DNA of 64,000 bases from Lytechinus pictus (lineage: Eukaryota). The notes beneath the pieces are model-generated. The model worked only from the letters and a program-made list of their open reading frames with translations, had not been told where the DNA came from and did not search any database. The DNA lies in assembly GCF_037042905.1 (NCBI RefSeq), contig NC_087252.1, positions 2,792,001 through 2,856,000 of the forward strand. The letters run 5' to 3'. The translations under genes were made by a program, and so were the position numbers. Shown piece by piece: positions 1,058 to 25,398 of the stretch; the first letter of the stretch is position 1, and every line of letters starts with the position of its first letter.

Positions 1058-1294
1058 CACTGCAAAAACACCAGTATTGATTTGACACCAGCGTATTTAT
1101 ATCGGAAAACACCAGGGAAGTGTTGAAACACCAGTTAAGAATCAAACTGATACTGGTTTAACACTGAGTATTAGTGTTATTTAAATGTCTATCTGATGTT
1201 AGCCTAAAGCCGAAGTGGTGTTATTGAAACAACTCTCTGGTGTTTTCCTATACAGATCCCAAGTTAGTATCAAAATAACACCGTAAATTTTGCA
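1058..1294. mobile_element. CACTG-ended (CACTA/EnSpm-like) MITE with its right tip deleted; duplicated at 7435-7671
   Basis: Homologous to the intact copy at 24533-24772 but lacks GTGTTTAACA, which includes the terminal GTG and the TT TSD. Confidence 0.8.
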
Positions 1295-2452
1295 TGTTTC
1301 AAGAAGATATAAAAGTTAATTAACTTTTCATGAAGGATTTATCTCTTATAATAGGGAAAAAAATAATGTCATGTCTCCGCTTAGCCATTACCCTGATCAG
1401 ACGCGGTTTCTCGCCCCATTTATTCTGATTCTTCTACTTTTCCCCATCACGCATATGAACTGAGATGGGGAATACTTACGATATCCTCAATTGACAGCCA
1501 TTTATCAGAGTCCTGCTTGGCTACCTCATCAAGCAAAGTGAAGTAAAAATCATGGATAATTGTTTTGCTCATTGGCTAATATTCGCCGTCCGTGGCAGGC
1601 AAGTCTTCTCGAAAATTACGGTTCAGGTTTGGGTTTGGGACCGATCTTATTAGTATTTTTTTTTTCATTTTTAGGTCAGACTCGGTCATGTAAAAGATGA
1701 AGCAACAGATGATATCGACGTCATTAATATGCATTAGGTGGGCTGATGATGTCATATCCCCACTTGTTCTTTTGTATTTTACTATATGAAATTAGGTTTA
1801 TTCAAAAAATTTCTGCCAAGAACAAAAGCAGTTGGATTGACAACTGATTAAGTGCATAAGTTCTTTATTGCTGCAAATCATTTCATCATAATAGAAACAC
1901 ATCATTTAAAATTTATGAAAAAATGAAATAACATAAGAAAAAGGAAAGTGGGGCCCGATGCGACATCATTGCCTCATAAAGACATGCCTAGAACGGTTTC
2001 ATCTGAATGATGCAAATCTTTAAATTCAGTAACTTCATTATTTATTTTTACAAAGAACGATGTGCAAATTTCCTGTTGAACAATTATGACATTGATGGAC
2101 TTCCATATATTTGAGGTTGATCGGATCAACCGTAACTCCATGTAATACGTGGCCCTGGTATGGTCAACATCAGCTAGTTGGTAGAATAAAAATACATACC
2201 AAAAGAAAAAAACTAAAACAAGCGCAACACTGAAAGGTTCATAAAAAACTCACAAAGTACTAGTATTAAGTGTGTATAGGCATAGCAAGAAAATAGCAAT
2301 CTCATTAGTTTCTAATTCCCCGCAGGACACTTTTAATTGGTATTTGGAAGGTCTTCTTGGCAATCAAAGAACCTCGTCAATATTTTGAATGTTAGCAAAC
2401 AACATTTTTTTCCTTTCTTTGGCAAATAATCACTCGAAAATATCTCAAGGAG

Positions 2453-2573
2453 TAGTGTAGATCTGGACGTTAGTACTTATTAATTTAGTTCAGAAGACGG
2501 TGTGTGTATACTGTGTGGAATGGATATGTAAAGTTTTCCAAACAAATAACTACTAACGCCCAGCTCTAGAATA
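2453..2573. mobile_element. Degenerate TAG..CTA MITE (family of 37980-38182); duplicated at ~8830-8950
   Basis: Ends TAGTGTAGATCTGGACGTTAGTA and TACTAACGCCCAGCTCTAGAATA. Flanks CTCAAGGAG and CTGAAGTAG (7/9). Confidence 0.7.
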
Positions 2574-2882
2574 CTGAAGTAGCTCTGAAGTAAATTAATT
2601 ATCTTCAGACTTTACTGTAGATGGTGATGAAAATGATAACAATAATTACATACAATTGTTGAAGTAGAGATAATGATGTATGTTTCATTATAGTATGGCG
2701 ATCCTTAATCTCTGAAGATGATGAGGAGGGGGGGGGGGGGACCAAGAGCCTTATAAGTCATGCAACATTCTACAGGTTCGCCACTCTTCTCTAACAGTTT
2801 ACTCGGGACTGTCAGAGTTTCCTCAGTGTATATACTTGAATGAATCAACTCTTTCCATTTAGCTGTAAGTTTGCCAGAGTCC

Positions 2883-3248
2883 AATCTTTTGTGACCATCA
2901 AAATCCGTTCGACAACTTCGACCGAGGAGAAATTCGACTCCAACACATATACAAGTTTCGCATAATCCGGTCTACAAAACGTCGAATCTTTTGTGACCAC
3001 CGAAGTCCGTTGGACAACTTCGATCGAGGAGAAATTCGACTCCAACGCATATACGACAAGTTTCGCCTAATCCGGTCAACAAAACCTTGATTCTTTTGTT
3101 ACCACCGAAGTCCGTTTGACAACTTCGACCGAGGAGAAATTCGACTCCTACACATATGACAAATTTCGCATAATCCGGTCTACAAACGTCGAATCTTTTG
3201 TGACCACCGAAGTCCGTTCGACCATTCGACTTTCGAGAATTTCGACTC
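2883..3248. repeat. ~103-bp minisatellite, ~3.5 units, ending ~90 bp upstream of GPCR copy 1
   Basis: Units beginning AATCTTTTGTGACCACCGAAGTCCGTT start at 2883, 2985, 3090 and 3192. Confidence 0.92.
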
Positions 3249-3337
3249 ATATGACATACGCTGTGCATACTGGTAATCTGCATGAACTACGGTGATAATA
3301 TTCGACTTCTCGAAGTTTTACTAGCTTACCTGTAGCT

Positions 3338-4393
3338 ATGATTAATAACACGACTGCGATTGCCGAAACGGAAGTGCCAATACATCCATCATGGTATATT
3401 GTGATCGCGTCTTTATTCAGCTTGATCTCAGTCACTGGTCTTGTTGGAAACTGTTTGGTTCTTCTCGCCGTGGTACTCTCGGCTAGTCTACAAACCAAGA
3501 TCAATGCATTTGTTGTTAACCTAGCAGTCTGCGACATGATCACATGCTTGTGCATCCCGAGCCAAGCCGTGGCCATCTTGTTTACAAGCGAACTCCCGAT
3601 ACCAGATAGTCTTCCAAACATCGTAGGGATCATCGTAACGGTTTCGCTGGATGGCACGATGCTAACACTCGCGATGATCGCTTTCATGAGGTGTGTAAAG
3701 ATTACACAACCCGCGTCCGTATCCAATAAACTTCACACGAGGTCGAAAATTGCATCTATCATTATCTGTATCTGGGCCTTACCGGTTACGCTGAACATAA
3801 CATTCCATTATCTGGGTATATTGCACTTTGGTTATGACCCGGAAACAAAACTTTATCGACTTACTAGTGAAGTTTCTAGTAAAATTGGACCATTGATTGA
3901 TGCAACAATTGTAACCATATCTCTTTCCTTCATATCCATTTGTTATATCAAAATAATTCTTCAGCTCAGAGCGCACTCAAGAAGGATAATGGCGAACGTA
4001 GAGGGAGCTCCACAACGTCAGATGCAGGACATGGGGCATCAACATGATCTTCAAGGAAGCCGGCAAGCTCAGGAGAATCATGCACCGGCGATGAGGCAAG
4101 AACGACGTAACCGAATAAGGGACCACGAGCTTTCCACCACAAAGAACCTGGCACTGGTAACCTTGGTATTCCTCCTCTGTTTTCTACCCTTTCCCTTCTG
4201 CATCAACAGTTTGAACCCATATCTTTACACCGTTGGTCTGTGCTTGGTTTGGAGCAACTCTGCAATGAACCCGCTGATATACGCTTTCAAACACACCCAT
4301 TTTCGGACGGTGTTTCGATGCATTTTATCCGGGTCCTTCGATAAGATTCCATATCCATCCCGTCAATTGCGGTCAATGATGCGACGTCATTGA
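3338..4393 (+). CDS. Intronless rhodopsin-class (class A) GPCR, 351 aa, copy 1; orphan receptor of the type expanded in sea urchins
   Basis: Seven hydrophobic segments with class A motifs: TM1 GLVGN, TM2 NLAVCD, TM3 AFMRC (DRY position), TM4 W (CIWALP), TM5 Y (SICYIKI), TM6 FLLCFLP, TM7 NSAMNPLIY, helix 8 HFRTVFRC. N-terminal NNTT glycosylation sequons. Confidence 0.95.
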   Translation: MINNTTAIAETEVPIHPSWYIVIASLFSLISVTGLVGNCLVLLAVVLSASLQTKINAFVVNLAVCDMITCLCIPSQAVAILFTSELPIPDSLPNIVGIIVTVSLDGTMLTLAMIAFMRCVKITQPASVSNKLHTRSKIASIIICIWALPVTLNITFHYLGILHFGYDPETKLYRLTSEVSSKIGPLIDATIVTISLSFISICYIKIILQLRAHSRRIMANVEGAPQRQMQDMGHQHDLQGSRQAQENHAPAMRQERRNRIRDHELSTTKNLALVTLVFLLCFLPFPFCINSLNPYLYTVGLCLVWSNSAMNPLIYAFKHTHFRTVFRCILSGSFDKIPYPSRQLRSMMRRH

Positions 4394-5682
4394 AGAGACT
4401 GCCTGCAAACAAGTCGGACTTTTCGCTCAACGACGGAGACGGACCTCGGCGACGCTGTAGTTGATTTTGGAAGAGACTCGTGGCCCCGTCGTCCAGCATT
4501 GCAAGTTCTGTGATATTATATATTTTTTTACATTTTGCATCCACAACGGAAACATTCAATCTGCAGTTCGTGTGTAAAATTCTAGTTGCTACTATGGTAG
4601 CAAAATGTTAATCTTGACAAAAATAATACCAATTTGGGGAAACAATCAATTTCATTTTCTGGTCCTACTTGGAATCATCAGCCAAGTAATATTAGAAACA
4701 CCCCCAGTCGTAAGATATTTAGCAAATCGTTAAAAATAATGCTACTGGAAGATTATAATTAATTTGGTATGGTAACATACTGCCTCAAAACAAATAATTC
4801 TATATAAAGATTTGTGAATAAGTAAGATATTTTTTCTTGTAAATAGTGTAAATATGTTCACTGAAAATGATCGAAATTTTCTGCAACAGTAATAAGTAGA
4901 ATTAGTCCTGAATTTGATGTACAATATTGAGATTTAGTTAAATTTATTGTTTAAACTATGATGACATTATTTGGGGCTAACCTCGATTAGCATCTTGCTA
5001 TTACGTTTATAGCTCCAATTACCAAATGTTTTGTTTTTATGTGATGTACTATTCCTTGTAATTGTACCTGACAGTGATATTTTGTAATAAATTCAATTCA
5101 ATTCATTTCAATGGTAACAATGGCAACTCCGATTTGGGAGGATAGGCGGGAGCCACAAGTGTGCCGTCCTGACGCTCGAGCTAGCTGTGGAAGCAACAGC
5201 CAATCATCGCGCCTGTACCTTAAAAGCACTTGTGTTAAAATTTCGCCCTAGAACTAGAGATCTACAATCTAAATAAAACTGTACGTTAAAGAATGATTAA
5301 AGTAATGAATTTAACGGATGTCATAAATCTCCGCTTTAATTCATTGAGTTTTTTTTAGTCTTTATCAAAATACTAGCATTTGCTTGAAGTTAAGCACTTG
5401 CTCTTACTACCATGGCTAGTGGCAAAGCATTTCATGAGATCCATGTACGGCAAGACCCTGGCCGGCTGTAATGGTTAAACCTGAGCTGATTAGACAGATG
5501 GATGGTAGCCCTGGCAGAGGGTGTATGAGGCTTGCTTTTTTGGTAATAATTATGAAATATGATGAAAAATGAAAAATCTAAATTTTATTGTTAATTCGAA
5601 ATAGAAACGTGATATATTCCGAAAATTCATTTTGCCCAATCGATGGAGGAACTTGGATGGTTCCGTTCGATTACGACTCGAG

Positions 5683-5903
5683 CATGGGCGGATCCAGTTT
5701 ATTCCAAGGGGGCACATTTTTCCAAGGAAAATTTGATAAGGCCCCCCCCCAAAAAAAAAAAAGTTTTCATTTTTCTGCTGAGTTTGTCTCTCAAAGGGTA
5801 AAAAAGGGCACACTTGTGTATTAACGAATATTGACTGTGACTCTCAAGGGGGGGGGGGGGGGACACTGGCCGAAAATACCCTCCCCCCTCGGATCCGCCA
5901 CTG
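5683..5903. mobile_element. hAT-like MITE remnant (also ~12044-12268)
   Basis: Ends CATGGGCGGATCC and GGATCCGCCACTG. No TSD recognisable. Confidence 0.5.
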
Positions 5904-5959
5904 TGTGTGTGCAAAGCTACTCGTGCCATTTGCCATGTACATTACACTTCTCATGTGTC

Positions 5960-6145
5960 AGCAAAATGCGTGCAAAGCTACTACTACTATTCATGACGAC
6001 CGTTTCCACAAAATATTGCTAAACTTTATCTTCAATAACTTTAGTATTTGTTATCCGATTTTGATGAAATTTTCGGCATTTTGCTCAGTGAATTCTACTC
6101 TATGAATTAGGATATAAATATTTTCAGCCCGGACCATCCCTTTAA
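5960..6145 (-). mobile_element. Terminal fragment of the AGGGATGGTCCGGGCTGAAA (TTAA-targeting) family
   Basis: Reverse complement of 40481-40640. Ends TCAGCCCGGACCATCCCT followed by TTAA (6142-6145). Other fragments at ~1720-2040 and ~52190-52690. Confidence 0.75.
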
Positions 6146-9100
6146 TCCAAGTTTCGTTATTACCTTGAATATAGTATGTCCGATCGCGTCTTCATTCACT
6201 CTTACTAGATTTCGTTTTTTTTTTTCATTTCGGGTCCGTAACTTGCGGGACAATACTTAAATTGTTATAAAAAGTGAAGGTTTAAGAAAACTGGGATATC
6301 TTTCATCAAACAGTTTAATTTAAAAATATATATATATATATATATATACTTCACTGACTGCGAGGAAATGAATTGACATATTTTTCTTTTCAATCCATGA
6401 TCCCATCTTGAAAAGTCACATATTGGGTACATTCCTTTCTATTCTTACATCATCTCTCTACATTATTTCTTTGTAAGTATCGCACATACCCTTTCACCAA
6501 TTTTGTGTGTGTAAAATAGTGGTTTTGTATTTTGTAATACATGAACTTGAGATTCAAGCTTATGTCGGACAAGTTTTTGTGTGTGTTCTATTTATGATAA
6601 ATTACATTCAGATGTGATATACATATTGTGTATGTAATAATCTTGACTTATATACTGTATTTAAATATTTAGGATGTGACCGCGCATGTATGGACCAATA
6701 GGAATACTTGAAGGTTTATGATCTTGTGTATAATTTGCCTAGACCTTTGTGAAAATTAAGAGTGGAAAAGTGTGGGGGGGGGGGGGGACATGGGAAAATT
6801 ACAGCTTAGCCGGGTAATAATAATAGCAGGGCCCGCTGGGTGAACAGTTTTCGAAAATTTTCGCTGTTACCGTTATTAATGTTATTATTATTATTTTTAG
6901 TATTATTATTAGCGGTAGCAAATAACCGAAATGAACCCTTTGAAATCTTTGAAGTTTGGAGATGAAAATAATGCAGTTACATAATTATTCTGTGATAAAA
7001 AAATGTCAGAAGGGGATAAAATAACTGCAAAGTGAAACAATATACCTATTTCAAAATGTCAACGGTATTTGAGGAATTTACAGCAAAATAGGAATGAGTC
7101 CAATGTGATATCTCTAGGATTTATGCTCGATAATCTTGGAGTCTTTATCACGTTCATGGTGGAATGATCGATTGTATAGTATCGTATTGTAGAATATTTC
7201 ATTTAGAAGACAACTTATTGCTTCTATCCAGATTATGTTAAATGGAAATGTCATCCGATAATATGGTCCAGAATGCCGATTATTTAAAATTGATATTTTT
7301 CCATGATTATTATCTCTTGAATAAATAATAGAACAAATCAGTTCTTAGAAAGTGACACTCGCTTTTAAAGTCCATTTTTAACTTCACGTTGTGTTTGGTT
7401 AGTTTTTATCATGTTTATTAAAGACTATTTCATTCACTGCAAAAACACCAGTATTGATTTGACACCAGCGTATTTATATCGGAAAACACCAGGGAAGTGT
7501 TGAAACACCAGTTAAGAATCAAACTGATACTGGTTTAACACTGAGTATTAGTGTTATTTAAATGTCTATCTGATGTTAGCCTAAAGCCGAAGTGGTGTTA
7601 TTGAAACAACTCTCTGGTGTTTTCCTATACAGATCCCAAGTTAGTATCAAAATAACACCGTAAATTTTGCATGTTTCAAGAAGATATAAAAGTTAATTAA
7701 CTTTTCATGAAGGATTTATCTCTTATAATAGGGAAAAAAATAATGTCATGTCTCCGCTTAGCCATTACCCTGATCAGACGCGGTTTCTCGCCCCATTTAT
7801 TCTGATTCTTCTACTTTTCCCCATCACGCATATGAACTGAGATGGGGAATACTTACGATATCCTCAATTGACAGCCATTTATCAGAGTCCTGCTTGGCTA
7901 CCTCATCAAGCAAAGTGAAGTAAAAATCATGGATAATTGTTTTGCTCATTGGCTAATATTCGCCGTCCGTGGCAGGCAAGTCTTCTCGAAAATTACGGTT
8001 CAGGTTTGGGTTTGGGACCGATCTTATTAGTATTTTTTTTTTCATTTTTAGGTCAGACTCGGTCATGTAAAAGATGAAGCAACAGATGATATCGACGTCA
8101 TTAATATGCATTAGGTGGGCTGATGATGTCATATCCCCACTTGTTCTTTTGTATTTTACTATATGAAATTAGGTTTATTCAAAAAATTTCTGCCAAGAAC
8201 AAAAGCAGTTGGATTGACAACTGATTAAGTGCATAAGTTCTTTATTGCTGCAAATCATTTCATCATAATAGAAACACATCATTTAAAATTTATGAAAAAA
8301 TGAAATAACATAAGAAAAAGGAAAGTGGGGCCCGATGCGACATCATTGCCTCATAAAGACATGCCTAGAACGGTTTCATCTGAATGATGCAAATCTTTAA
8401 ATTCAGTAACTTCATTATTTATTTTTACAAAGAACGATGTGCAAATTTCCTGTTGAACAATTATGACATTGATGGACTTCCATATATTTGAGGTTGATCG
8501 GATCAACCGTAACTCCATGTAATACGTGGCCCTGGTATGGTCAACATCAGCTAGTTGGTAGAATAAAAATACATACCAAAAGAAAAAAACTAAAACAAGC
8601 GCAACACTGAAAGGTTCATAAAAAACTCACAAAGTACTAGTATTAAGTGTGTATAGGCATAGCAAGAAAATAGCAATCTCATTAGTTTCTAATTCCCCGC
8701 AGGACACTTTTAATTGGTATTTGGAAGGTCTTCTTGGCAATCAAAGAACCTCGTCAATATTTTGAATGTTAGCAAACAACATTTTTTTCCTTTCTTTGGC
8801 AAATAATCACTCGAAAATATCTCAAGGAGTAGTGTAGATCTGGACGTTAGTACTTATTAATTTAGTTCAGAAGACGGTGTGTGTATACTGTGTGGAATGG
8901 ATATGTAAAGTTTTCCAAACAAATAACTACTAACGCCCAGCTCTAGAATACTGAAGTAGCTCTGAAGTAAATTAATTATCTTCAGACTTTACTGTAGATG
9001 GTGATGAAAATGATAACAATAATTACATACAATTGTTGAAGTAGAGATAATGATGTATGTTTCATTATAGTATGGCGATCCTTAATCTCTGAAGATGATG

Positions 9101-9258
9101 AGGAGGGGGGGGGGGGACCAAGAGCCTTATAAGTCATGCAACATTCTACAGGTTCGCCACTCTTCTCTAACAGTTTACTCGGGACTGTCAGAGTTTCCTC
9201 AGTGTATATACTTGAATGAATCAACTCTTTCCATTTAGCTGTAAGTTTGCCAGAGTCC

Positions 9259-9624
9259 AATCTTTTGTGACCATCAAAATCCGTTCGACAACTTCGACCG
9301 AGGAGAAATTCGACTCCAACACATATACAAGTTTCGCATAATCCGGTCTACAAAACGTCGAATCTTTTGTGACCACCGAAGTCCGTTGGACAACTTCGAT
9401 CGAGGAGAAATTCGACTCCAACGCATATACGACAAGTTTCGCCTAATCCGGTCAACAAAACCTTGATTCTTTTGTTACCACCGAAGTCCGTTTGACAACT
9501 TCGACCGAGGAGAAATTCGACTCCTACACATATGACAAATTTCGCATAATCCGGTCTACAAACGTCGAATCTTTTGTGACCACCGAAGTCCGTTCGACCA
9601 TTCGACTTTCGAGAATTTCGACTC
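9259..9624. repeat. Same ~103-bp minisatellite upstream of GPCR copy 2
   Basis: Duplicate of 2883-3248 (offset 6376). Confidence 0.92.
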
Positions 9625-9713
9625 ATATGACATACGCTGTGCATACTGGTAATCTGCATGAACTACGGTGATAATATTCGACTTCTCGAAGTTTTACTAG
9701 CTTACCTGTAGCT

Positions 9714-10769
9714 ATGATTAATAACACGACTGCGATTGCCGAAACGGAAGTGCCAATACATCCATCATGGTATATTGTGATCGCGTCTTTATTCAGCTTG
9801 ATCTCAGTCACTGGTCTTGTTGGAAACTGTTTGGTTCTTCTCGCCGTGGTACTCTCGGCTAGTCTACAAACCAAGATCAATGCATTTGTTGTTAACCTAG
9901 CAGTCTGCGACATGATCACATGCTTGTGCATCCCGAGCCAAGCCGTGGCCATCTTGTTTACAAGCGAACTCCCGATACCAGATAGTCTTCCAAACATCGT
10001 AGGGATCATCGTAACGGTTTCGCTGGATGGCACGATGCTAACACTCGCGATGATCGCTTTCATGAGGTGTGTAAAGATTACACAACCCGCGTCCGTATCC
10101 AATAAACTTCACACGAGGTCGAAAATTGCATCTATCATTATCTGTATCTGGGCCTTACCGGTTACGCTGAACATAACATTCCATTATCTGGGTATATTGC
10201 ACTTTGGTTATGACCCGGAAACAAAACTTTATCGACTTACTAGTGAAGTTTCTAGTAAAATTGGACCATTGATTGATGCAACAATTGTAACCATATCTCT
10301 TTCCTTCATATCCATTTGTTATATCAAAATAATTCTTCAGCTCAGAGCGCACTCAAGAAGGATAATGGCGAACGTAGAGGGAGCTCCACAACGTCAGATG
10401 CAGGACATGGGGCATCAACATGATCTTCAAGGAAGCCGGCAAGCTCAGGAGAATCATGCACCGGCGATGAGGCAAGAACGACGTAACCGAATAAGGGACC
10501 ACGAGCTTTCCACCACAAAGAACCTGGCACTGGTAACCTTGGTATTCCTCCTATGTTTTCTACCCTTTCCCTTCTGCATCAACAGTTTGAACCCATATCT
10601 TTACACCGTTGGTCTGTGCTTGGTTTGGAGCAACTCTGCAATGAACCCGCTGATATACGCTTTCAAACACACCCATTTTCGGACGGTGTTTCGATGCATT
10701 TTATCCGGGTCCTTCGATAAGATTCCATATCCATCCCGTCAATTGCGGTCAATGATGCGACGTCATTGA
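9714..10769 (+). CDS. Intronless rhodopsin-class GPCR, 351 aa, copy 2 (protein identical to copy 1)
   Basis: Identical translation in the ORF track. One synonymous difference seen: CTC at 4175-4177 vs CTA at 10551-10553. Confidence 0.95.
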   Translation: MINNTTAIAETEVPIHPSWYIVIASLFSLISVTGLVGNCLVLLAVVLSASLQTKINAFVVNLAVCDMITCLCIPSQAVAILFTSELPIPDSLPNIVGIIVTVSLDGTMLTLAMIAFMRCVKITQPASVSNKLHTRSKIASIIICIWALPVTLNITFHYLGILHFGYDPETKLYRLTSEVSSKIGPLIDATIVTISLSFISICYIKIILQLRAHSRRIMANVEGAPQRQMQDMGHQHDLQGSRQAQENHAPAMRQERRNRIRDHELSTTKNLALVTLVFLLCFLPFPFCINSLNPYLYTVGLCLVWSNSAMNPLIYAFKHTHFRTVFRCILSGSFDKIPYPSRQLRSMMRRH

Positions 10770-13700
10770 AGAGACTGCCTGCAAACAAGTCGGACTTTTC
10801 GCTCAACGACGGAGACGGACCTCGGCGACGCTGTAGTTGATTTTGGAAGAGACTCGTGGCCCCGTCGTCCAGCATTGCAAGTTCTGTGATATTATATATT
10901 TTTTTACATTTTGTATCCACAACGGAAACATTCAATCTGCAGTTCGTGTGTAAAATTCTAGTTGCTACTATGGTAGCAAAATGTTAATCTTGACAAAAAT
11001 AATACCAATTTGCGAAAACAATCAATTTCATTTTCTGGTCCTACTTGGAATCATAAGTAATATTAGAAACACCCCCAGTCGTAAGATATTTAGCAAATCG
11101 TTAAAAGTAATGCTACTGGAAGATTATAATTAATTTGGTATGGTAACATACTGCCTCAAAACAAATAATTCTATATAAAGATTTGTGAATAAGTAAGATA
11201 TTTTTTCTTGTAAATAGTGTAAATATGTTCACTGAAAATGATCGAAATTTTCTGCAACAGTAATAAGTAGAATTAGTACTGAATTTGATGTACAATATTG
11301 AGATTTAGTTAAATTTATTGTTTAAACTATGATGACATTATTTGGGGCTAACCTCGATTAGCATCTTGCTATTACGTTTTATAGCTCCAATTACCAAATG
11401 TTTTGTTTTTATGTGATGTACTATTCCTTGTAATTGTACTGACAGTGATATTTTGTAATAAATTCAATTCAATTCAATTCAATGGTAACAATGGCAACTC
11501 CGATTTGGGAGGATAGGCGGGAGCCACAAGTGTGCCGTCCTGACGCTCGAGCTAGCTGTGGAAGCAACAGCCAATCATCGCGCCTGTACCTTAAAAGCAC
11601 TTGTGTTAAAATTTCGCTCTAGAACTAGAGATCTATAATCTAAATAAAACTGTACGTTAAAGAATGATTAAAGTAATGAATTTAACGGATGTCATAAATC
11701 TCCGCTTTAATTCATTGAGTTTTTTTTTTGTCTTTATCAAAATACTAGCATTTGCTTGAAGTTAAGCACTTGCTCTTACTACCATGGCTAGTGGCAAAGC
11801 ATTTCATGAGATCCATGTACGGCAAGACCCTGGCCGGCTGTAATGGTTAAACCTGAGCTGATTAGACAGATGGATGGTAGCCCTGGCAGAGGGTGTATGA
11901 GGCTTGCTTTTTGGTAATAATTATGAAATATGATGAAAAATGAAAAATCTAAATTTTATTGTTAATTCGAAATAGAAACGTGAAAATTCATTTTGCCCAA
12001 TCGATGGAGGAACTTGGATGGTTCCCTTCGATTACGACTCGAGCATGGGCGGATCCAGTTTATTCCAAGGGGGCACATTTTTCCGAGGAAAATTTGATAA
12101 GGCCCCCCCCCCCCAAAAAAAAAAAAAGTTTTCATCTTTCTGCTACTGAGTTTGTCTCTCAAAAGGTAAAAAATGGCACACTTGTGTATTAACGAATATT
12201 GACTGCGACTCTCAAGGGGGGGGGGGGGACACTGGCCGGAAATACCCTCCCCCTCGGATCCGCCACTGTGTGTGTGCAAAGCTACTCGTGCCATTTGCCA
12301 TTTACATTACACTTCTCACGTGTCAGCAAAATGCGTGCAAAGTTACTACTACTATTCATGACGACTGTTTTCACAAAATATTGCTAAACTTTATCTTCAA
12401 TGACTTTATTATTTGTTATCCGATTTTGATGAAATTTTCGGCATTTTGCTCAGTGAATTCTACTCTATGTATTAGGATATAAATATTTTCAGCCCGGACC
12501 ATCCCTTTAATCCAAGTTTCGTTATTACCTTGAATATAATATGTCCGATCGCGTCTTCATTCACTCTTACTTGATTTCGTTTTATTTTCATTTCGGGTCC
12601 GTAACTTGCGGGACAATACTTAAATTGTTATAAAAATGAAGGTTTAAGAAAACTGGGATATCTTTCATCAAACAGTTTAATTAAAAAAAAAAAAAAATAT
12701 ATATATATACTTCACTGACTGCGAGGAAATGAATTGACATATTTTTCTTTTCAATCCATGATCCCATCTTGAAAAGTCACATATTGGGTACATTCCTTTC
12801 TATTCTTACATCATCTCTCTACATTATTTCTTTGTAAGTATCGCACATACCCTTTCACAAATTTTGTGTGTGTAAAATAGTGGTTTTGTATTTTGTAATA
12901 CATGAACTTGAGATTCAAGCTTATGTCGGACAAGTTTTTTTGTGTGTTCTATTTATGATAAATTACATTCAGATGTGATATACATATTGTGTATGTAATA
13001 ATCTTGACTTATATACTGTATTTAAATATTTAGGATGTGACCGCGCATGTATGGACCAATAGGAATACTTGAAGGTTTATGATCTTGTGTATAATTTGCC
13101 TAGACCTTTGTGAAAATTAAGAGTGGAAAAGTGGGGGGGGGGGGGACATGGGAAAATTCCAGCTTAGCCGGGTAATAATAATAGCAGGGCCCGCTGGGAG
13201 AACAGTTTTCGAAAATTTTCGCTGTTACCGTTATTATTGTTATTATTATTATTGTTAGTATTATTATTAGCGGTAGCAAATAACCGAAATGAACCCTTTG
13301 AAATCTTTGAAGTTTGGATATGAAAATAATGCAGTTACATAATTATTCTGTGATAAAAAAATGTCAGAAGGGGATAAAATAACTGCAAAGTGAAACAATA
13401 TACCTATTTCAAAATGTCAACGGTATTTGAGGAATTTACAGCAAAATAGGAATGAGTCCAATGTGATATCTCTAGGATTTATGCTCGATAATCTTGGAGT
13501 CTTTATCACGTTCATGGTGGAATGATCGATTGTATAGTATCGTATTGTAGAATCTTTCATTTAGAAGACAACTTATTGCTTCTATCCAGATTATGTTAAA
13601 GGTAAATTGTGACATTGGTTTATTTCAAAACTTTCTTTTAGATTTCACTCTTCGCTTTTCAAAATACTCATAAACAAGTTCTGAGTCCATAAAATGTATT

Positions 13701-15947
13701 GCATTGGCCAAAAGAACTGTTTTTATTCTCAAAAAAATATATAAAGAAGAGAAATTTTGCCAAGTGAGCTTTCTTTTGATGCAGATTTTGAAATTGATAT
13801 AAAAAATGAAGAGCGCCACCTTGAGACCAAATGACATCAATACCTGCTCATGAATATTCATATCCATCGCCTCTGCGCTTGTCTCACGTGCCGATCTGTA
13901 TACCGGCTATACAGTACAGTATCGGATTGAACGGCGGAGTCTGTTTGCGACTTTTTCATTCATATCCTGTAGGAGCGTGTGCATTCGCGCAGTCCCTCGA
14001 CGGCAAATTAAATAACTTGGAAACAACCAAGGAACTTTTTTAAATGACCATCATAATAATTGTGATGTTATGCACGTTGTTTTTCAAATCGCGGAGAAAA
14101 GGTCCTACGTACATCTTGATATCTGGGCAGAGTACCAGGTACCGAGAGACGGCTTCCTTCCCTTTCCTTGCTTTTCATCTTTGCTTCGTTTCTCTAGCTG
14201 TATTTTTTTTCTTTACTTGTCCAGGGTATGAAGGGAGGGAGAATTATGGTTGCTTGTGAAAGGGCTATTCTTATTTTTTTTCCCGTTTTTTATTTCTATT
14301 TTATAATTATATTTACATACGCATTTTTGTTTCGATTCCGATTCACTGAATTGTTATCAATTTCTTCAGGTTCTGTATTTTGATTTGTTCATTATTATAA
14401 CGTGTTGTAACATTTTTTTTAAAGGAAAAGGAAATCATTTTGTATTGAACTAGCTTTGCCGCCATTCTTCATTATTTTGCTTTGTGCGTTATATAGGCCT
14501 ATAAGATGCTCTTTCTCTTCCAGTGATTATTTGTCAATATACTGCCTCAATGTATTTATCACTAAAAAATGACAAATACCGCGTGGCCTATGCCTTTTTT
14601 TTTAAACAATATATTCTGGGGCGGATCCAGCTTTCACTAATAACGGGGCCGGGGTGAACAATATTTTCATCCACATTTTTCCCGATCGATCGGCAGCTCA
14701 AAGCTAGTTTTGGTTGGAATCTATAGTCGTAACAGTACTAAACCCTATAAAAAATGCGAGCGTGAGGTATTATTTTCGGACTGTGTATTGTGTCCTGAAA
14801 ATTGATCTGAGCAATATGATCATTAAACAAGATGCACACTGACGGATAAGGTGCTCAAAAATTTGAATAAGTAAAGGCCTATTTAGTTCCCTTGTTCGTT
14901 TTACTATAAGCCCTTCAACAATGTTTCCGTGTTTTGTATTACATTGATCAGTTAATATTTCTTTATGTCTCATACTATTTCGATATGAATTATACCTTGT
15001 CATTGTACTTGTTACTATGATTTTATATACTAATAACTCTGAACTTGTGAACCTGTTTAACCATGACTGAATGAATAAATCAATAAATGAATTGGTATAG
15101 ATGAATAGATGTTCCATCGAACAGGCAATGCGAACACAAAGCGCGGGCTAAATTGTTTTTATACATGTGTAGTGACATGATTGGCTCCCACCCCTCCCCA
15201 AGTCTGAATTCCCCTCACCTTTTTTTATTCATTCTTCCTCTTATATTTTGCCCCCCCCCCCTCTGCTTTCGTTCATATTACTTTGCGCCGCCAATATCGG
15301 GGGGGGGGGGGCGTAACGTCGGCCTCCTGGATCCGCCTATGATACCGGTGCGTAGGTCTGTATGTTATAACCATGTAACATCGATCCCCCTCCAAGTTTC
15401 TCTTTGCATTTTTCTTTTCAACTTGTTATGGTAGTATACTGAACAAGAACAAGTATGACGTCTCCTAGGTGCCTCTCCCTCCACCCACTCTAGCTCCTCG
15501 GTCCGCTGCATGTGCTCGGATAATAAAATTACGTACTTATCATGGTGATATATATATAATAAAATTGCAAATTTTATTGCAAAAACTGCATTACTCGTGA
15601 ATTTGTGTTTCGCATTTCTGATGTCTTATTAAATATATATATATATATATTCGAGGACATACAGCTAGGCGGAACTATTTGGGGGAAGGGGTCTTCCATC
15701 TCTGTGTGATTCCGAAGTTCCGATGATGGTTCAGAGAATGTACTTCATGCAAAATCACGTTTTGGCATGACCTCTCAGCGCTGGGCATATCGACGGACAA
15801 AAAAATGCAAAAATGTGATGGATCGAAATGGTAAAAAATATATATTTTAAAGAAAACCATCGTTATAAAATGCAGTCATACCAACATATTTTTGTTAATA
15901 CCAGTTTGAACTTAGATAAAAATTATAACCCGAGGCTATATTAGCAG

Positions 15948-16937
15948 CAGGGGCGGCGGAACCGGGGGGCGGCAGGGGCACTTAACCCCCTACATAAAAA
16001 AATCCCAGTAGGAAAAAATGCCTTTTTTAAATGGAGAGTGCACTTATTTCAAAATGATGTACATGAATGTCCCTTTTCAAAATAAAATACCCTTTTTGAA
16101 GTCAAACGATACATTTTAGGTTGGAAATCACAAAATTTTTGGCTCGCGCTTCGCGCCCACATCATTTATTTTTTAGGAAGGCACTCACTTTGTTTTGGTT
16201 ACAACTTGTGCTTATAATGTTCAATTTTCAGGTTTAAATGTCACAAATCTTCAGCTCGCGCTTTCCGCTCGCATCAAAGGTACACATTATGTTCTTGGTT
16301 TCAAACTGCTTAGAATATCCAGTTTTCAGGTTGAAATATTACAAATTTTCGGCTCGCCGCGCTTCGCATCAATTATTATTTATTAAGACACACAATTAAG
16401 TTCTTGGGTTAAAAAAGTGCTTAGAATGTCCAGTTTTCTGGTTGGAATATCGCGCTCGCGTCCATTCTTCAATTAGATGCACATCTTTTTCATAACAAAA
16501 TTGCTCGGAATGTTCTGATTTTCATGTCTTATTAGTCATGTTAGTACAAGCAATGTCTAGAATTTATAGCTCGCGATTTGCGCTCTTAACACCTCGCAAG
16601 AATGCTCTTTTAACAATAATTTGCGCGATTTGACCAAAAAGCGGCGAGTTTCACAACTTCAGATTTGAAAATGTTCAAACTGCTTGCTTGCTACGCTCGC
16701 TCCCGGAAAAATAAAGCCTAAATAGATATTTTATCAATCAGAAAAGACTTTAAAAAGGTTTTGCTCAATTTAATTACTACAAAACGCACAACTACTTAAC
16801 ACAGATGATAATCTCATGGTGAAAATATAAGTTTGCATAAAAAATGCAATTTTTTGCATATAAGTGCCTTTTTTCGCTTTGTCCCCCCCCCCAAAAAAAA
16901 AAAAAAAAAAAATTGAAAATACGTTCCGTCGCCTATG
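15948..16937. mobile_element. hAT-like MITE with internal GCTCGCGCTTCGCGCTCGC satellite, nested in the 10.7-kb element
   Basis: Ends CAGGGGCGGCGGAAC and GTTCCGTCGCCTATG. TSD not preserved. Confidence 0.65.
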
Positions 16938-17264
16938 ATTCCGTCACCTATGGCACTCGCTGGTATTTGAATATATCATCATTTACACCCTCTCAAAGAA
17001 AGCAGACTTACTTTTGCCCTTTATTTTGCCCACAATGGAACTTACAGGAAAGCATATCAAACAGGATGCAAATGGAGGTCTATTCAGCCGGACGTTATTA
17101 TACGCTTTGGAGTTTGGATTCTTGTTTGCCTAGAAAACGTAAAGTATTTCAAGAGTTTTTATATTTTCATTACATCTTTGTCCTTATTTCTCTATATCCG
17201 TAGCTCTACCATGCGCGTATTCGGGGGCGCCAAAATAGGGAGAAAAGGGAAGGAAAGAAAAGGG

Positions 17265-17680
17265 GTTGACGAATTGCTGTTTGACATGGGGGGGGGGGGT
17301 GGATGCGCCGAATTGATGTTCAACCTAGAGTATGTATATAGCGGGTGACGAATTTATGTTTTGCTTAGGGGCGCCGAATTGATGTTCGACCTAGGATGTG
17401 CCAAATTGATCTTCATCCTAGGGGGGGGGGCGAATTAATGTTTTACCTCGGGGCGCCGTATAGATGTTCGACATAGGGGCACCGAAGGGCACCGAAATGA
17501 TGTTTAACCTTGGGGATGGGGCGCCGAATAATTTTTTTCTATATACGGTTGTCGAGTTGCTGTTTGACATATAGGGGTGCCGAATGGATATTCACCACAC
17601 GCCAATTTGATATTTGTCTCGGTGCATCAAATTCAGGTTCAATTTACCTAGGGAGGGGAGGGGGTGCCAAACTCATGTTT
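17265..17680. repeat. Degenerate ~32-bp minisatellite (GGGGCGCCGAATTGATGTTCGACCTAG)
   Basis: Roughly ten diverged units visible. Confidence 0.8.
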
Positions 17681-17709
17681 GCTCCCATCAATTACCAATC
17701 ATGTTCATG

Positions 17710-18465
17710 ATTACCAAAAGTGCCTAGAAAGTCCTAATTTTAGATCAGAATATAAAAACAAATTCATCCTACTCTTCGCATTAATTGTTTAGTAAGGTGG
17801 CGATCCTGTTCATGGTAAGATAAGTGCTTAGAATGTCTGACTTTGTATCAAAATATATAGATTTTTATTCAGCTCGCGCTTCGCGCTCGCATAAACTGTT
17901 TTGTTACTGATCATCCTTTTCATGATAACCGAAAATGCTTACTCAAATGTCCAAATTTTAGGTAAGAATATGAAAAAAAATTCATCTCGCTCTTTGCGGA
18001 CGCATCAATGTTTAGTTAGATGACAATCCTGTTCATGATTACCAAAAGTGCTTAGAATGTCCACATTTTAGGTCAAAATATCAATCACTTTTTAAGCTCG
18101 TGCTTCGCACTCGCACAAATTTACGAGGTCAGAATATCAAAAAATTTGAACTCGCGCTTAGCGCTCGCATTAATTATTTAGCTATATACTCATCCTGTTC
18201 ATGGTTATAAAAAGTGCTTATGATGTCCAGTGTTGGATTGGGAATTCAAAAATTGTCAGTTCGCACTTCGTGATCGCATAAAATGTTGATAGATACTCAT
18301 CCTGTTCTTGATTGCCAAAAGTGCTCATAGATTTTTTTCCCCTCAAATTTTAGGTCAGAATATAAAAAAAATTCAGCTCACGTTTCGCGCTCGTATCAAT
18401 AATAATTGTTTAAATAATTCATATACATATCATGTTCACGGTTGCAAAAAGCGTAGAATGTTTGA
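17710..18465. repeat. Degenerate ~80-bp tandem array built on GCTCGCGCTTCGCGCTCGC
   Basis: Recurring AAAAGTGCTTAGAATGTCC..TTTTAGGTCAGAATAT..GCTCGCGCTTCGCGCTCGC..ATCCTGTTCATGATT. Same family at 16120-16710 and 52000-53420. Confidence 0.85.
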
Positions 18466-20357
18466 TCGGAAAACAGATGAAAATATCCCCCTCCCCTATT
18501 GGCGAAAGCTGGATCTAGCCCCGGTTAAGAAATTACAGCTCCCGCACATAATTTTAGTATGGTCTACCACTCTGATGAAAAGTTGAACTAAATTGAAACC
18601 CCAAAACGCTTAAAAATTCTATGCTTTCTGGTCGCATTTATTCTTTTCAAGAAGTGGATACAACTTTGATCTTTTTTTACATGGACACACTATGGACACA
18701 ATAAAAAAAATGGTCTTCGATTGCCTTTTTCACGTGGTTGTGGAATAAGACAATTCAAAATGCATTTAGGCACTTTGATTGCCTGAGTGGTCGGGTCGGG
18801 GTGCAATTTTCCGAAAAGTTCACAGGGGCGCAAAAATAGTGACCCCCTCGTGGTGCAAAATCCTGGATATGCGCATGTCCGTCGGGCATCGTTTCCACTT
18901 TTGTACCTCTTTATCTATACCGGTGTGATACTATATAAGTCCATGGATCAGTTTACTTCCATTTCGTCTGATGCCAAATCGTCAAATTGCCAACTCGCCT
19001 ACTATCATTAAAGTCTACCATAATTATGTTCATCCACTATCGTCTAGTAACCAGTTGGTCCAATAGCCATTCAGTCCATATACCATTTGGTCTCATTGGA
19101 CAACGTGCTATTGTGCAAAATGAATGAAAATGAATTGGATACTGGACCAAATAGTTGTTCGACGAAATATTGATGGACGGAATGGATATGGACTAAATTA
19201 AATCAGACCATGTGGTGAGTGCAAGTTGGCACTTGGCAGTCGACGACTTGGCAATTTACCAATGGACCTACTAGGCCACTAAATTGAACTTGTCCGAGTG
19301 TGCCATAACACCTAAACTGCAGGCTTTCTCATATCCGATACCCCCCCCCCCCCATCCCCGCCGCCCCAAGAAAGGGAAGGGGGGCATGGAGGAGAGAGAA
19401 GAAATAAAGAAAGAAGTAGATTGTTGAAAGGGAATCAAAATAATATGAATCAAAGGGAATGTAAACGCAATATCATACTCTGTTTGAATCGCTTCTCTTT
19501 CATGGAATTTATACTTTGAATAGATCGTTTCATTTCAGTCTTTCTCATTATTTTACTTTCAACCCTGTATTTCATCAGCTTTACTATCAAAAGCCTGCGT
19601 AGCGAATTACAAAACGTCCCATCCTTGTTTCACCACCCATGACATTATGTAATTATCATTTTATTATTATCATGTAATGAAATTCATACTGTGTTTACAC
19701 GCTGCATCTGCTGTCAGTTTGACTACCTTGTAAATATTTATTTACAAGGTAAAGCTTATTTCCAAGGTAATATTTATTTACAAGGTAAAGCCTATTTCCC
19801 CACTGGAAAATAGCTTTAGAGCTTTCGTGGGTCATCCTGTGTAAGCCTGTTGTTTTTAATGCTACTGTATATATATTATGGTGACTTGCGAAATAAAATC
19901 AATCAATCAATATTTTTTGACGATATCCAGTTGAAATCAGTGGCGTTCAAAATAATGGGGAAGGATTGGGGCTATATGGATTCCCAAATTTGTCACGGCC
20001 AATACAAAAAGAAAGCGAGAAGGGGAACTAATATCTGAATATTATGTCAAAATCTATCACCGATAAAAAATGATTTGTGCCCGACACATATATCTGGCCC
20101 CTTAATTCTTATATTTTACGTTTATTATTTACGCCAATAGTTCAAGCAAGGTTCCTAACATCTTTCTGTATTTTTCGATGTTTACACAATTCCTAGCCTT
20201 GGGTTGGGGGTTGTGTGTATTCCTTATGTTCGCATTTTTTAATGTTATTTTTCTATTTATTTCAATATTATCCTCTCCAACTTTATTATGGTATGACTAT
20301 TCAAGGAATTATAATTACTCGTTTGCTTGCATGCTCCATGACCGCTTTGCCTTCACT

Positions 20358-20893
20358 CCGGGGGGGGGGGGGGCACTTACATTGACGAGTGGATACCATG
20401 CGCGACCCCAAAAACACGTAAAAAGGATGTCTTTTTGTCAAAAACACAAAAATATTTAAAAAAGGGTATCTATGTTGCTAGGAAAGCTACGTGTTTAGGG
20501 TAATATTTTCGGGGATGATGAAACAAAATTAAAATGTTTTATAAAGGATGTCCTTTTTGCCCCAACACTACGTGTTTAGAGTCCGACTTGCGCGAGTTGT
20601 GGAAGGTGCATGGGGCCGTACTAAACCAAAATAATGATGTGTAAAGGTAAAACCAACGACCGACGGACCCGACATAACAATAAAATATCGCTGTACTTGT
20701 TTAGGGGTTCATTTCGGGAATACTTGCCAAGAGTATCGTTTTGTTTCCAATACTTGTTAAGGGTCGGTTTGAGACGCCAATACTTGTTAAGGGGTGCAGT
20801 TTGAGAATATGGAAAATACGTGTTTGGGTGCTTTTCGAGACCCCATGGTCGCGCATGGTATCCACTCGTCAATGGAAGTGCCCCCCCCCCCGG
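20358..20893. mobile_element. MITE with CCG(G)n termini and 8-bp TSD (superfamily unassigned), nested in the 10.7-kb element
   Basis: TIR CCG(G)nCACTTACATTGACGAGTGGATACCATGCGCGACC, near perfect. CCTTCACT at 20350-20357 and 20894-20901 (9 bp GCCTTCACT if the boundary is shifted by one). Confidence 0.92.
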
Positions 20894-22319
20894 CCTTCAC
20901 TTCTCTCAGTGCGTATCAGAACTATTACTGTATTCTCATTGATCCCCCTGGAGTTGTAAAAAACCCATAAAGGCAAAATATTATATTTTCATCGGCAGCA
21001 CATGTGCATTAATTACATCATCATAAATTAAGTACATCAGGGTCCATGATCAGAAAAAGCGTATACCCATTAAACCTCGCCAGATGGGGCTTGTCCCAAA
21101 ATAACAATTTTATTTTTGTCTCGTTTCGAAATTTCATTTTTATTTTGGCTGCTATATGCTTCAAGCACATATTTGCTTACTGTATATAGTTTGCCTATGC
21201 ATTTTACTCATTATATATATATTTTTTTATATATTGTATTTCTCCAGTCACTACATATACGATTGTCACTTGTATTATGATCATGTCTCAAGCATTGTAA
21301 ATTTGTTTTGTATATTATTCCCATAAATGCAAAAAAATCCTGCAAAAAAAGCCACATCACCACATAGTTGAACCATTCCAACTATTTATACGATCAATAC
21401 GATCGCCTCGACTGATCTGATACGATTAATTATTCCGCGATTATAATTAAGGCCCTTGGAACCGGGGGTGCAAAGCACCCCCAAGATTTTACAATGGGGT
21501 GCGGCGTGCATTATTTTCCATGTAGGCAGCTCCCCCTGGAATTCTGGTATAGGTGTCGAATTGGATAAATGTAGGAAAATTACCAACATTTTGTATTGGA
21601 ACCTTTTTTAATGTTTTTCTTTTGCTTTGTCAAATTTTCCTCAGCACCGCCACCAAAAAAAAAAATCGTGACAGTGTGAACTTGGCACTTTTTTTTCAAT
21701 CATAAAAAATGATTATATTATTTTCCCGCATGAGTTTTGAAATATTGACACGTACGCCAGAATCTCTTTGGTCCTAATATGAAGCATAAATTTCCACGTC
21801 TATAAAACAACATTTATCATTCGTTTTTCCTATAGTTATAGCAGGGAAATGGGAGTTACAATTCCATTGATAAATAAGTCTAAAATGTTATGCCAATCAT
21901 TAAGATGCAAGTCCCGGATGCAAGTAATGTCTTTGTCCTGCTCATGTCGCAGTCATTCACATTTTTTCAACGGTTGAACTGCTCGTGCACACTCTGTATG
22001 CGTATAGGCCTTTCCCGGAGGCCTTTCTTCCTCTCATTTGTTGCTATAAAATTTCATCTTTTTATCAATTCTTTCTACTTGTTTACTGTCTATGAAGGGG
22101 TAGCAAGTTGATCTCCCATGGGGTGCCCCTATATATTGTTGCATCATTTGTATCCATTTCTTGGGAAAATACATCAATTGGATGATCCATTTATATATGC
22201 CTATCCATCCATTCTTTCAGTCATCCATCCACCGGTCGTGCTGATGGTTTGATTATAGCATGGACGTAATAGGTCCATGATTGCATAAAGTATAAAGCGC
22301 CCTACTATATCATTATAGA

Positions 22320-22514
22320 CTACCCCCACCCCCTCCCCATACTACATAAAAACTCGGCGACCCATGTACACATTTCAAAGCAGACGTAATGTACAAGCAC
22401 AATTCCCTTGTACATGTTGCACCTTGCTGCTTCTCCAGGTTTGCTTAGTCTTCTGTCACATACGTTGTTGCACTTTGCCCCACGGCGTGCCTTGTAAAGT
22501 TCTGTTGTAAGACT
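22320..22514 (-). pseudogene. Possible decayed PHD-finger coding fragment inside the 10.7-kb element
   Basis: Stop-free 64-codon frame containing KCNNVC-x12-CNMY-x6-HYVC-x11-CSMG; 6 of 8 C4HC3 ligands present. Confidence 0.45.
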
Positions 22515-22958
22515 CTACATGCTGGTCGGCCCTGGAAATCACAACTCTGAAGCACGTGCACCGCGCAATACTCAACTTCTCATTTTTCCATATCTCGATG
22601 CAAGCTTTCTTGTGTGGATGCAAAAATAAGAGTTTTCCCAGAAATCTTGTCCCTGACGTCATGTCTGCCCCCCCCCTCATTTTTTGACTCATGACGCCTT
22701 TACTCTGCTTGTTCGACCTTGAGCCGTTGGTCCCCTGGTTGCTTGCTCACAGGCATTCGTGCTTTCTTAGCAGTCAGGTAAAAACCTCGGCAACAGAAAT
22801 AACAGAAATTAGCAACTTGATGCGTACGTTGGTCACATTCATGCTATCACGATCTACACAATGTAGACTACACGTACGTACTTCGCATCAACAGGTTTCT
22901 CAGCTCACCTTTTGACCTCGCGAGTTCAATCTAAACAAACGAAGAGTAGTCAAGTGTT

Positions 22959-23153
22959 GCATTGGGATTGTATCTTCGTTATGTTTTACTATAGGCCTAT
23001 ATTTAACCCCGCATTGGGGTTGCATCTTCGTTATGTTTTACTATAGGCCTATATTTAACCCCGCATTGGGGTTGCATATTCGTTATGTTTTACTTTAGGC
23101 CTATATGATTGCATCTTCGTTATGTTTTACTATAGGCCTATATTTAACCCCGT
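22959..23153. repeat. 52-bp tandem repeat, ~3.7 units
   Basis: GCATTGGGGTTGCATCTTCGTTATGTTTTACTATAGGCCTATATTTAACCCC units at 22959, 23011 and 23063, plus a partial unit. Confidence 0.95.
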
Positions 23154-24532
23154 ATTAAACAAACCCTGTTTTATATCGTAGAACCTGCTCTGAAAGTAAT
23201 CGTTTTTCTCTTCGCCCTTTCCCTTCATGCTTGGCTGTAGACAGAATGGTGGTGGCCGTCTGTTTAGAGTTTTAAATATTTTTGGTCTAACTTTTTTTTT
23301 CCAATTTCTCCTCTGTACTTTGCGAGTGGATCTAAATAATCTGAAACTGACTGAAACATTCAGGAAAGATAAAAAACACACCAAAATATCAAATTAGGGT
23401 ATGTTGTATCCATATCCCTTTATGATGGCTCTCCTGATTCTCTTTCACCAATCCACTTCTTTCTTTCTTCTCTCTCCTCCCTCCCCCTTTCCTTTGGGGA
23501 GGGCCAAGGAGTCAGTATACAGAGTATAAATACAGTGAGCTGCGCTATAGCGCCTCGCTGTAGTTCCCGTATATGTATCACGCCAAGCTATACATGAAGG
23601 GAAAGGTGCATAAAAGAGCTACAATCCACATGAATAAAGATCAAACTCGGAACTCGGCCCTTGCCCATCTCTGGGATTCTCGTATCTCTTTTAGTCTTGG
23701 AGTACTTTCAGATTCATGACATAAGAGTCCGAAAGTAAGCCGTATTGGGCAATCCTTTGCTTCGTCATTCACGTCAGATAATCAACGTGTCTGAATCCTT
23801 TTTCACGCGTACGATACATTTATGGATATAGCTCAATATAGTATTCTTATCCTGTGTGTGCTATCGCAAATAGTGGATTATATCTGAAACTAATGCAGAG
23901 CGCAAGCATGTCGCTAGCCGCCTAGCATCGGCTCATTGAGCTTGCACGCACCGTTCGATGTTTGCTTTCTACTCAGCTACACACACAGAGTACTGCACTT
24001 TGTTGATACGGGGATTTCTTGATACTGCGCATGCGCCATGACGTATTTCATCAATATGCATGAGTCGTAATGAATATGCATGATTCGAACGGTGTTCTAA
24101 TATCAATTTATTTTTTAACCCGAGAGGGCGTCAATAAGAAAGTTCAACCTTATATCGATTAACCGATAATTGTTATAATATATGTTTCACCCCTCAATAT
24201 CATGAGAATATAAAAGTTATGCAAGTTTCTTTTCCGTGATAAAATAGAGCAATTATATAGGTATTTAATGAATGTAATAATTTCAAAATTGATTCATTGC
24301 CCTTGTCTGAGATCAACCAATCATACACTATACCTTTAAATGGAAATGTCATCCGATAATATGGTCCAGAATGCCGATTATTTAAAATTGATATTTTTCC
24401 ATGATTATTATCTCTTGAATAAATAATAGAACAAATCAGTTCTTAGAAAGTGACACTCGCTTTTAAAGTCCTTTTTTAACTTCACGTTGTGTTTGGTTAG
24501 TTTTTATCATGTTTATTAAAGACTATTTCATT

Positions 24533-24772
24533 CACTGCAAAAACACCAGTATTGATTTGACACCAGCGTATTTATATCGGAAAACACCAGGGAAGTGTTG
24601 AAACACCAGTTAAGAATCAAACTGATACTGGTTTAACACTGAGTATTAGTGTTATTTAAATGTCTATCTGATGTTAGCCTAAAGCCGAAGTGGTGTTATT
24701 GAAACAACTCTCTGGTGTTTTCCTATACAGATCCCAAGTTAGTATCAAAATAACACCGTAAATTTTGCAGTG
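24533..24772. mobile_element. 240-bp CACTA/EnSpm-like MITE, TT TSD
   Basis: TT|CACTGCAAAA...TTTTGCAGTG|TT. Confidence 0.85.
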
Positions 24773-25117
24773 TTTAACATGTTTCAAGAAGATATAAAAG
24801 TTAATTAACTTTTCATGAAGGATTTATCTCTTATAATAGGGAAAAAAATAATGTCATATCTTGAATCGTCGCAGCGTGCAGTGCCGGTACGGCCTTTCAC
24901 CAACGCTTTGGTGTGATGGCAAGAATGAACGTGAGCAATTAAAGATTTGGCAATTAAGAAATGGAGATCTCCCCCTGTGCCCACTAGACGTCATCTGAAT
25001 TCATCGAGAGATAAATTGTAGAGCATGGATACAATGAATGGGGTGCCACTTGCCAGATCATGGAAATCGTCCGACCGTAGACATGATAAGATGAACATGA
25101 CAATATGATCACCGGAT

Positions 25118-25168
25118 GAGTGATGATGATGATGATGATGATGATGATGGTGATGATGGTGATGATGG

Positions 25169-25200
<32 letters not shown>

Positions 25201-25398
25201 GTGATGATGATGGTGATGATGATGAAGGTGGTGATGATGATGGCAATGATGATGGTGATGATGATGAAGGTGGTGATGATGATGATGATGGTGATGATGA
25301 TGGTAATGATGATGATGATGATGATGATGATGAAAATGATGATGATGATAATGATGATAATGATGATGATGAGGATGGTGATGATGATGACGATGATG
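25118..25398. repeat. (GAT)n microsatellite, imperfect
   Basis: Direct reading. Confidence 0.99.

Follow-up and report, generated by a model that had tools for sequence, protein, structure and literature searches.

A 10.7-kb insert with Kolobok-type ends and old nested cargo in a sea-urchin receptor-gene array, likely a young copy of a non-autonomous family

The receptor-gene array and its filled and empty sites

The window analysed here is a stretch of 64,000 nucleotides of the Lytechinus pictus genome (assembly GCF_037042905.1, contig NC_087252.1, positions 2,792,001 to 2,856,000). In it a 6,377-bp unit is repeated in tandem, each copy with a G-protein-coupled receptor (GPCR) gene of the rhodopsin family in a single open reading frame (ORF; PF00001, E 1e-29), and the array contains an insert of 10,736 bp (13600..24335) with TTAA on both sides, which is probably a young member of a multi-copy, non-autonomous transposon family with Kolobok-type ends. 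The closest database relatives of the receptor are sea-urchin proteins (Lytechinus) at 44-48% identity. The unit junctions lie at 1376/1377 and 7753/7754: unit 1 (1377..7753, plus strand, GPCR ORF 3299-4393) is of the empty type, while unit 2 (7754..24861, plus strand, GPCR ORF 9675-10769) is of the filled type and is the last, ending at 24861 before unique DNA. The two ORFs, of 364 amino acids each, encode identical proteins.

The boundaries of the insert are given by its junctions, and a public sequencing run that lacks the receptor-gene flank (X1, see below) covers it end to end. At the left junction the sequence is GATTATG-TTAA-AGGTA, at the right one TACCT-TTAA-ATGGAAATG, with the two target-site copies at 13596..13599 and 24336..24339; the uninterrupted GATTATG-TTAA-ATGGAAATG is present at 854-873 and again at 7231-7250, its empty TTAA lying at 861..864 and 7238..7241. 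In exact searches of the window, GATTATGTTAA matches at 854, 7231 and 13589, and TTAAATGGAAATG at 861, 7238 and 24336, a count of three that was reached in 0 of 100 shuffles. These exact matches, together with an ungapped alignment of the ends, confirm the junctions, the length and the 16/21 terminal inverted repeat (TIR) proposed by a first-pass annotation made from the sequence alone. That annotation also reported the empty site twice; the exact sequence is indeed at both places, but the second is not independent of the first. A comparison of 1-4176 with 6376-10552 gives 0 substitutions in 4,175 bp and 2 indels, both in G runs, so that the two empty sites count as one observation. The duplication either arose very recently by unequal crossing-over or is an assembly duplicate. 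From 4177/10553 on, 37 substitutions in 3,481 bp separate the empty type from the filled one (1.06%, in line with the earlier estimate of about 1%), and the jump from identity to divergence is abrupt and falls inside the GPCR ORF, suggesting that an empty-type array crossed over unequally with a filled haplotype. A divergence of 1.06% is within the allelic range for sea-urchin polymorphism.

Both ends of the insert begin AGGTA and form imperfect TIRs, the left at 13600..13627 (plus strand) and the right at 24308..24335 (starting AGGTA on the minus strand). Without gaps, they agree at 21/28 positions, 16/21 over the first 21 and 11/16 over the first 16. Of the window's 94,605 TTAA-to-TTAA pairs, just 3 attain 21/28 or better: the insert and two short TIR elements, at 34875-35205 and 46386-46513. 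The site can also be parsed as a 5-bp TTAAA duplication; symmetric AGG...CCT ends arise from the TTAA parse only. A 12-bp palindrome lies near both ends, 250 bp inside the left one (13850..13861) and, with one mismatch, 254 bp inside the right one (24070..24081). At up to one mismatch it has 3 matches in the window, against 0.59 expected and a maximum of 4 in 100 shuffles, the third belonging to a separate TTAA-AGG miniature inverted-repeat transposable element (MITE) at 40477-40867. That the same palindrome stands at 250 and 254 bp inside the two ends argues that both belong to one element; the motif itself is predicted to be a transposase-binding site or a family signature. No CpG-island contrast was found at the insert ends. 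Kolobok elements are defined by a TTAA target-site duplication (TSD) and by purine-purine...pyrimidine-pyrimidine (RR...YY) termini (PMC9587614); here, comparison of the empty and filled sites gives the TTAA duplication, and the termini are 5'-AG...CT-3'. The Kolobok-type ends recognised in the first-pass annotation therefore stand.

Nested cargo and coding content of the insert

The interior of the insert is filled with repeats, old ones among them, which match other repeats of the window at about 66-84%, two 23-bp low-complexity matches aside. Eroded satellite-like units of about 111 bp occur on the plus strand within a nested element (16114..16451, 66-72% identical to an array at 52801-53223) and in a second eroded array (17682..18458, plus strand, 69-84% to the same array at 52.8-53.2 kb), with eroded 26-bp tandem units between them (17264..17581, plus strand). 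A dispersed-repeat fragment (19042..19253, plus strand) recurs at 34348-34619 with 76% identity, and its bin has high depth in all four sequencing runs examined. Further on, the stretch 22235..22813 contains a high-copy repeat fragment, at about 145 times the GPCR depth in runs X2 and X7, and probably what had been described as coding debris; part of it (22715-22784) resembles 61387-61454 at 78%. The description of the interior as old and eroded does not extend to all of it. A nested 536-bp MITE (20358..20893), whose 45-bp arms are 98% identical and whose 8-bp TSD is intact (20350-20357 and 20894-20901), is not eroded; it is missing from a form present in organism B, a related species and the source of runs X2 and X7, in both of which a joint passes from 20357 to 20916. 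A 52-bp tandem repeat (22959..23151, plus strand) is likewise young, with 95% matches. For the other candidate nested elements, no matching TSDs were found by eye, and we do not claim their boundaries.

Coding content was sought with Pfam in 16 ORFs of the window, in 24 frame chunks covering the insert and in 27 short frames; large protein databases were queried with the 22.2-22.9 kb stretch, the rest of the insert being scanned by Pfam only. Among the 16 ORFs, the GPCR is the sole credible match. In agreement with the first-pass annotation, no transposase (THAP, H2CH or DDE) was detected in six-frame Pfam scans of the insert, and a motif scan gave scattered matches only. Pfam and motif scans of the insert likewise detected no KolX (P2X7 ballast-like) gene, although very short decayed exons could escape them. 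The supposed coding debris found no credible match: two minus-strand frames of 22.3-22.8 kb had no relative by word search, a third had no phmmer/HMMER relative among 1.84 billion proteins, and the ESM Atlas held no protein relative of the 22.2-22.9 kb stretch. A by-eye resemblance of 22.3-22.5 kb to a piggyBac cysteine-rich tail gained no support from these searches and was dropped. Rfam gave 0 matches, so that no structured RNA was detected in the insert.

Pack-MULE and other Pack-TYPE elements are large non-autonomous TIR elements, moved in trans and defined by the host-gene fragments that they have captured. The insert shares with them that foreign DNA would be moved in trans; unlike theirs, its cargo consists of other repeats, and no captured host-gene fragment was detected by protein or Rfam searches (22.2-22.9 kb in the large databases, the remainder by Pfam). 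The label "Pack-type", suggested at first, is consequently not retained.

Copies of the insert in public sequencing runs

Sixteen public sequencing runs were listed for positions 14450-24440, and four of them (X1, X2, X7 and X11) were aligned in detail to 7760-25100; the joints and loose ends reported here are those listed, 1,409 further joints and 6,479 further loose ends lying outside the listing. The share of the insert's words was 0.68-0.74 in five runs (X1 and X11-X14), 0.05-0.08 in nine, all from organism B, and 0.00 in two (X15 and X16, from the sample of X1); the low shares of the seven further organism-B runs and the zero of X15 and X16 are not used as support for the reading favoured below. 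The contigs of X11-X14, four further samples, total only 78-159 Mb each. X1 is labelled as another organism, and its 18.7 million records amount to 1,031 Mb of contigs, comparable to the whole-genome run X2.

X1 covers the insert, nested repeats included, with a depth of 7.6 or more in every one of the 19 overlapping bins. Its longest 8 of 524 pieces, at depth 7-12, cover 5,392 of the 10,736 bp, nested repeats among them, with 17 differing letters in 5,405 (0.31%; 99.7% identical). The flanks behave quite differently, with depth 0 over 8918-10654 (the GPCR, with no match at 85% likeness) and 0.21 over 24551-25100. In bins of flank repeats, the X1 depth has a median of 0.0047 of that in X2, which puts single copies at a depth of about 0.2-0.35 where the insert stands at 7-12; five of seven such bins scale alike (0.003-0.006). 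At a MITE end at 12510, contigs carrying the flank are listed 380 times in X2, 445 times in X7, 96 times in X11 and not at all in X1. Filtering by sequence is unlikely to have produced the hole in X1, because X11 contains the same GPCR stretch, nearly exact (2 differences in 1,444 bp) and at depth 5.8. All this fits X1 being so dilute that nothing but multi-copy DNA could be assembled from it, and its depth would then correspond very roughly to 20-70 near-identical copies of the whole insert, as an order of magnitude only.

X1 also shows, at 15742, 15772, 19626, 19718 and 23333, a second and more diverged form at depth of about 6-10, with letters common with organism B, which suggests an older subfamily in the same sample. 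The insert pieces listed for X11 have depths of 59-92 in the outer parts (14369-16827 and 21805-22744) and of 8-12 in the middle (pieces within 16923-20112), a 5-10-fold difference that could reflect either convergent transcripts from both ends or internally deleted copies.

In organism B (X2 and X7), the GPCR is found at about 93-96% identity and pieces of the insert at about 92%, the bins of the insert's backbone being 2.8-7.3 times as deep as the GPCR in X2 and 4.4-6.6 times in X7. Collinear joints there skip 13630-13801, 15488-15687, 20358-20915 and 22981-23229, the third of these skips starting exactly at the edge of the nested MITE. The joint from 13629 to 13802 has a short side of 34 letters in both X2 and X7, the length of TTAA plus the terminus, although which side is short is not readable. 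The family is likely older than the split from organism B, with multiple copies in both lineages and cargo acquired since then.

Origin and relatives of the insert

The reading that we favour starts from what is seen at the site, namely the duplicated TTAA, the AGG...CCT ends, the palindrome placed symmetrically near them and the exact empty site, and from a near-identical interior in a run without the flanks. A parent copy would have gathered MITEs and satellites over a long time, and a transposase made elsewhere in the genome, for which a Kol0-type Kolobok transposase is the likely candidate, would recognise the ends and move the whole 10.7 kb in trans. Amplification after the build-up of cargo would copy the entire package, because cut-and-paste requires the ends only. 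One daughter copy would then have recently entered, in a single haplotype, a TTAA 2.8 kb downstream of the GPCR gene. The empty sites would represent the state before insertion, joined to the same chromosome by unequal crossing-over within the GPCR array or by the merging of haplotypes during assembly. The first-pass annotation had seen a paradox in old cargo between young flanks and had proposed, as one solution, a large non-autonomous element recently moved with its cargo. The near-identical cargo in a run lacking these flanks supports this proposal and removes the paradox: the cargo is old and the move likely recent. The divergence from the X1 pieces (0.31%) is also lower than that between filled and empty flanks (1.06%).

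Several points weigh against this account. A test for this copy being younger than the split between the flanks has little force (P = 0.027 against 0.5% per lineage), and the eight X1 pieces are the longest of 524, which biases their identity upward. Contig depth is not copy number, a coverage hole proves nothing, and the pattern in X11 means that not all copies or transcripts have the whole interior. Among the joints and loose ends listed for the four runs, no other full-length copy between TTAA sites of its own was seen, and loose ends at the TIRs and the empty-site joint were absent as well; no long read across the junctions was seen.

Excision was the other solution proposed at first. Its strong form, an element old at this site whose cargo decayed in place, is not supported, since the same cargo is near-identical in X1 without the flanks. 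In a milder form, the insertion would slightly predate the split of the filled and empty haplotypes, and the empty type would have arisen by precise, piggyBac-like excision. The exactness of the empty site is what such excision would leave, the age gap between 0.31% and about 0.5% per lineage is of weak significance, and the state of the site in organism B is not readable from the run alignments. This scenario nevertheless needs two events where insertion needs one, and with near-identical cargo in a run without these flanks no paradox remains for it to solve. The published account of KolobokP excision, moreover, describes the deletion of 1-5 flanking bases as usual (PMC9587614, section 8); Kol0 is not covered in that section. 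We consider this excision scenario unlikely. Our literature search on Kolobok excision found nothing evidently related.

Somewhat more doubtful still is that X1 represents a more distant species at ordinary depth, holding one or two near-identical copies received by horizontal transfer or introgression, in which case the copy number in the species of the window would be lower. The different organism label, a contig total and record number like those of X2, the missing GPCR at 85% likeness and the 0.00 of words in two sister runs of the sample would all agree with this. Against it, five of seven flank-repeat bins scale alike (0.003-0.006 of X2), and X1 has no listed flank-carrying contigs at a very high-copy MITE end, both of which fit dilution; the 10.7 kb would in any case still be a moving unit. 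The corresponding history, in which an enzyme-less 10.7-kb Kolobok vehicle, mobile in two sea-urchin lineages, where it took up lineage-specific MITEs and satellites and spread them again as one package, lately crossed intact (99.7%) into a third, more distant species (X1), is to us just as improbable. Finally, that two unrelated TTAA elements or an assembly mosaic imitate a single insertion is very improbable: the TIRs are short and imperfect, the ends beyond them have little in common save the palindrome, and the duplication around the site, with its 0 substitutions, may stem from the assembly, but boundaries set by the empty site yield a complementarity that only 3 of 94,605 pairs reach, the palindrome is symmetric, X1 covers 19 of 19 bins with listed pieces at depth 7-12, the organism-B backbone is collinear and published Kolobok TIRs in Xenopus are just as imperfect (PMC6004289).

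Among known systems, the insert resembles the Kol0 lineage of Kolobok and the full-length XKol elements of Xenopus, with which it shares the TTAA TSD, RR...YY termini and short imperfect AG/AGG TIRs, the 11/16 here being similar to several pairs in Table 5 of PMC6004289 (see also PMC9587614). The ten full-length Xenopus Kolobok copies tabulated there measure 6,763-13,907 bp and have imperfect AG-ended TIRs (PMC6004289), so that the insert, initially called giant, lies inside the published size range. It differs from them in that no transposase or KolX was detected and that its interior is non-coding and filled with repeats. With the T2-MITEs of Xenopus (Xmix/T2-A1), which are non-autonomous, TTAA-flanked, AGG-ended, long-lived across related species and bearers of tandem repeats, it shares this general character (PMC6004289). 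However, it is 10,736 bp long, its ends read AGGTA rather than AGGRR, and its cargo consists of unrelated nested elements and not of its own internal repeat, whereas the amplified internal segment of the T2-MITE is the Xstir repeat (PMC6004289). Non-autonomous KolobokP elements have TTAA and RR ends, and KolobokP is reported in echinoderms (PMC9587614); the oyster non-autonomous families described there span 1.7-3.3 kb, and window repeat searches found no KolobokP-type terminal direct repeats (450 or 660 bp) in the insert. A piggyBac identity is ruled out by the RR termini AG...CT, since piggyBac is given as the non-RR contrast (PMC9587614). Autonomous Kol0, T2-MITE, KolobokP, piggyBac and Pack-TYPE were each rejected by the comparisons given above. 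The literature searched described no large non-autonomous Kolobok with nested cargo in sea urchins, although Repbase, which lay outside that search, may hold the family. The element is a new non-autonomous member of a superfamily already known, and is otherwise of a fairly ordinary kind, with a size typical for Kolobok.

The window holds further elements of note. The MITE at 40477-40867 is of the TTAA-AGGGA Kolobok/T2 type, has related ends finishing at 6145 and 12510, and stands at very high depth in all four runs. Of the two other TTAA pairs with complementary ends, 34875-35205 is a 331-bp element whose inverted repeat (27/28) starts TTCC, neither an RR nor a CC end, and 46386-46513 is a 128-bp element with CC-starting ends (21/28). 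The ends of piggyBac are of the CC type, and by this rule we take the 128-bp element to be piggyBac-like. Long GAT and CAT microsatellites in opposite orientation lie about 3.6 kb apart (25115-25398 and 29006-29260), and 13-bp tandem units that cluster where the sequence is richer in GC (44514-45145) are possibly subterminal repeats of another transposon.

The insert illustrates that an old interior between young flanks is no paradox in cut-and-paste elements: nested repeats hitchhike on an amplifying carrier, and because they do so their age does not date the locus. Carriers of this kind would multiply and disperse old copies of MITEs and satellites, confusing repeat-age profiles. The pair of filled and empty sites also offers a ready substrate for the study of Kolobok excision.

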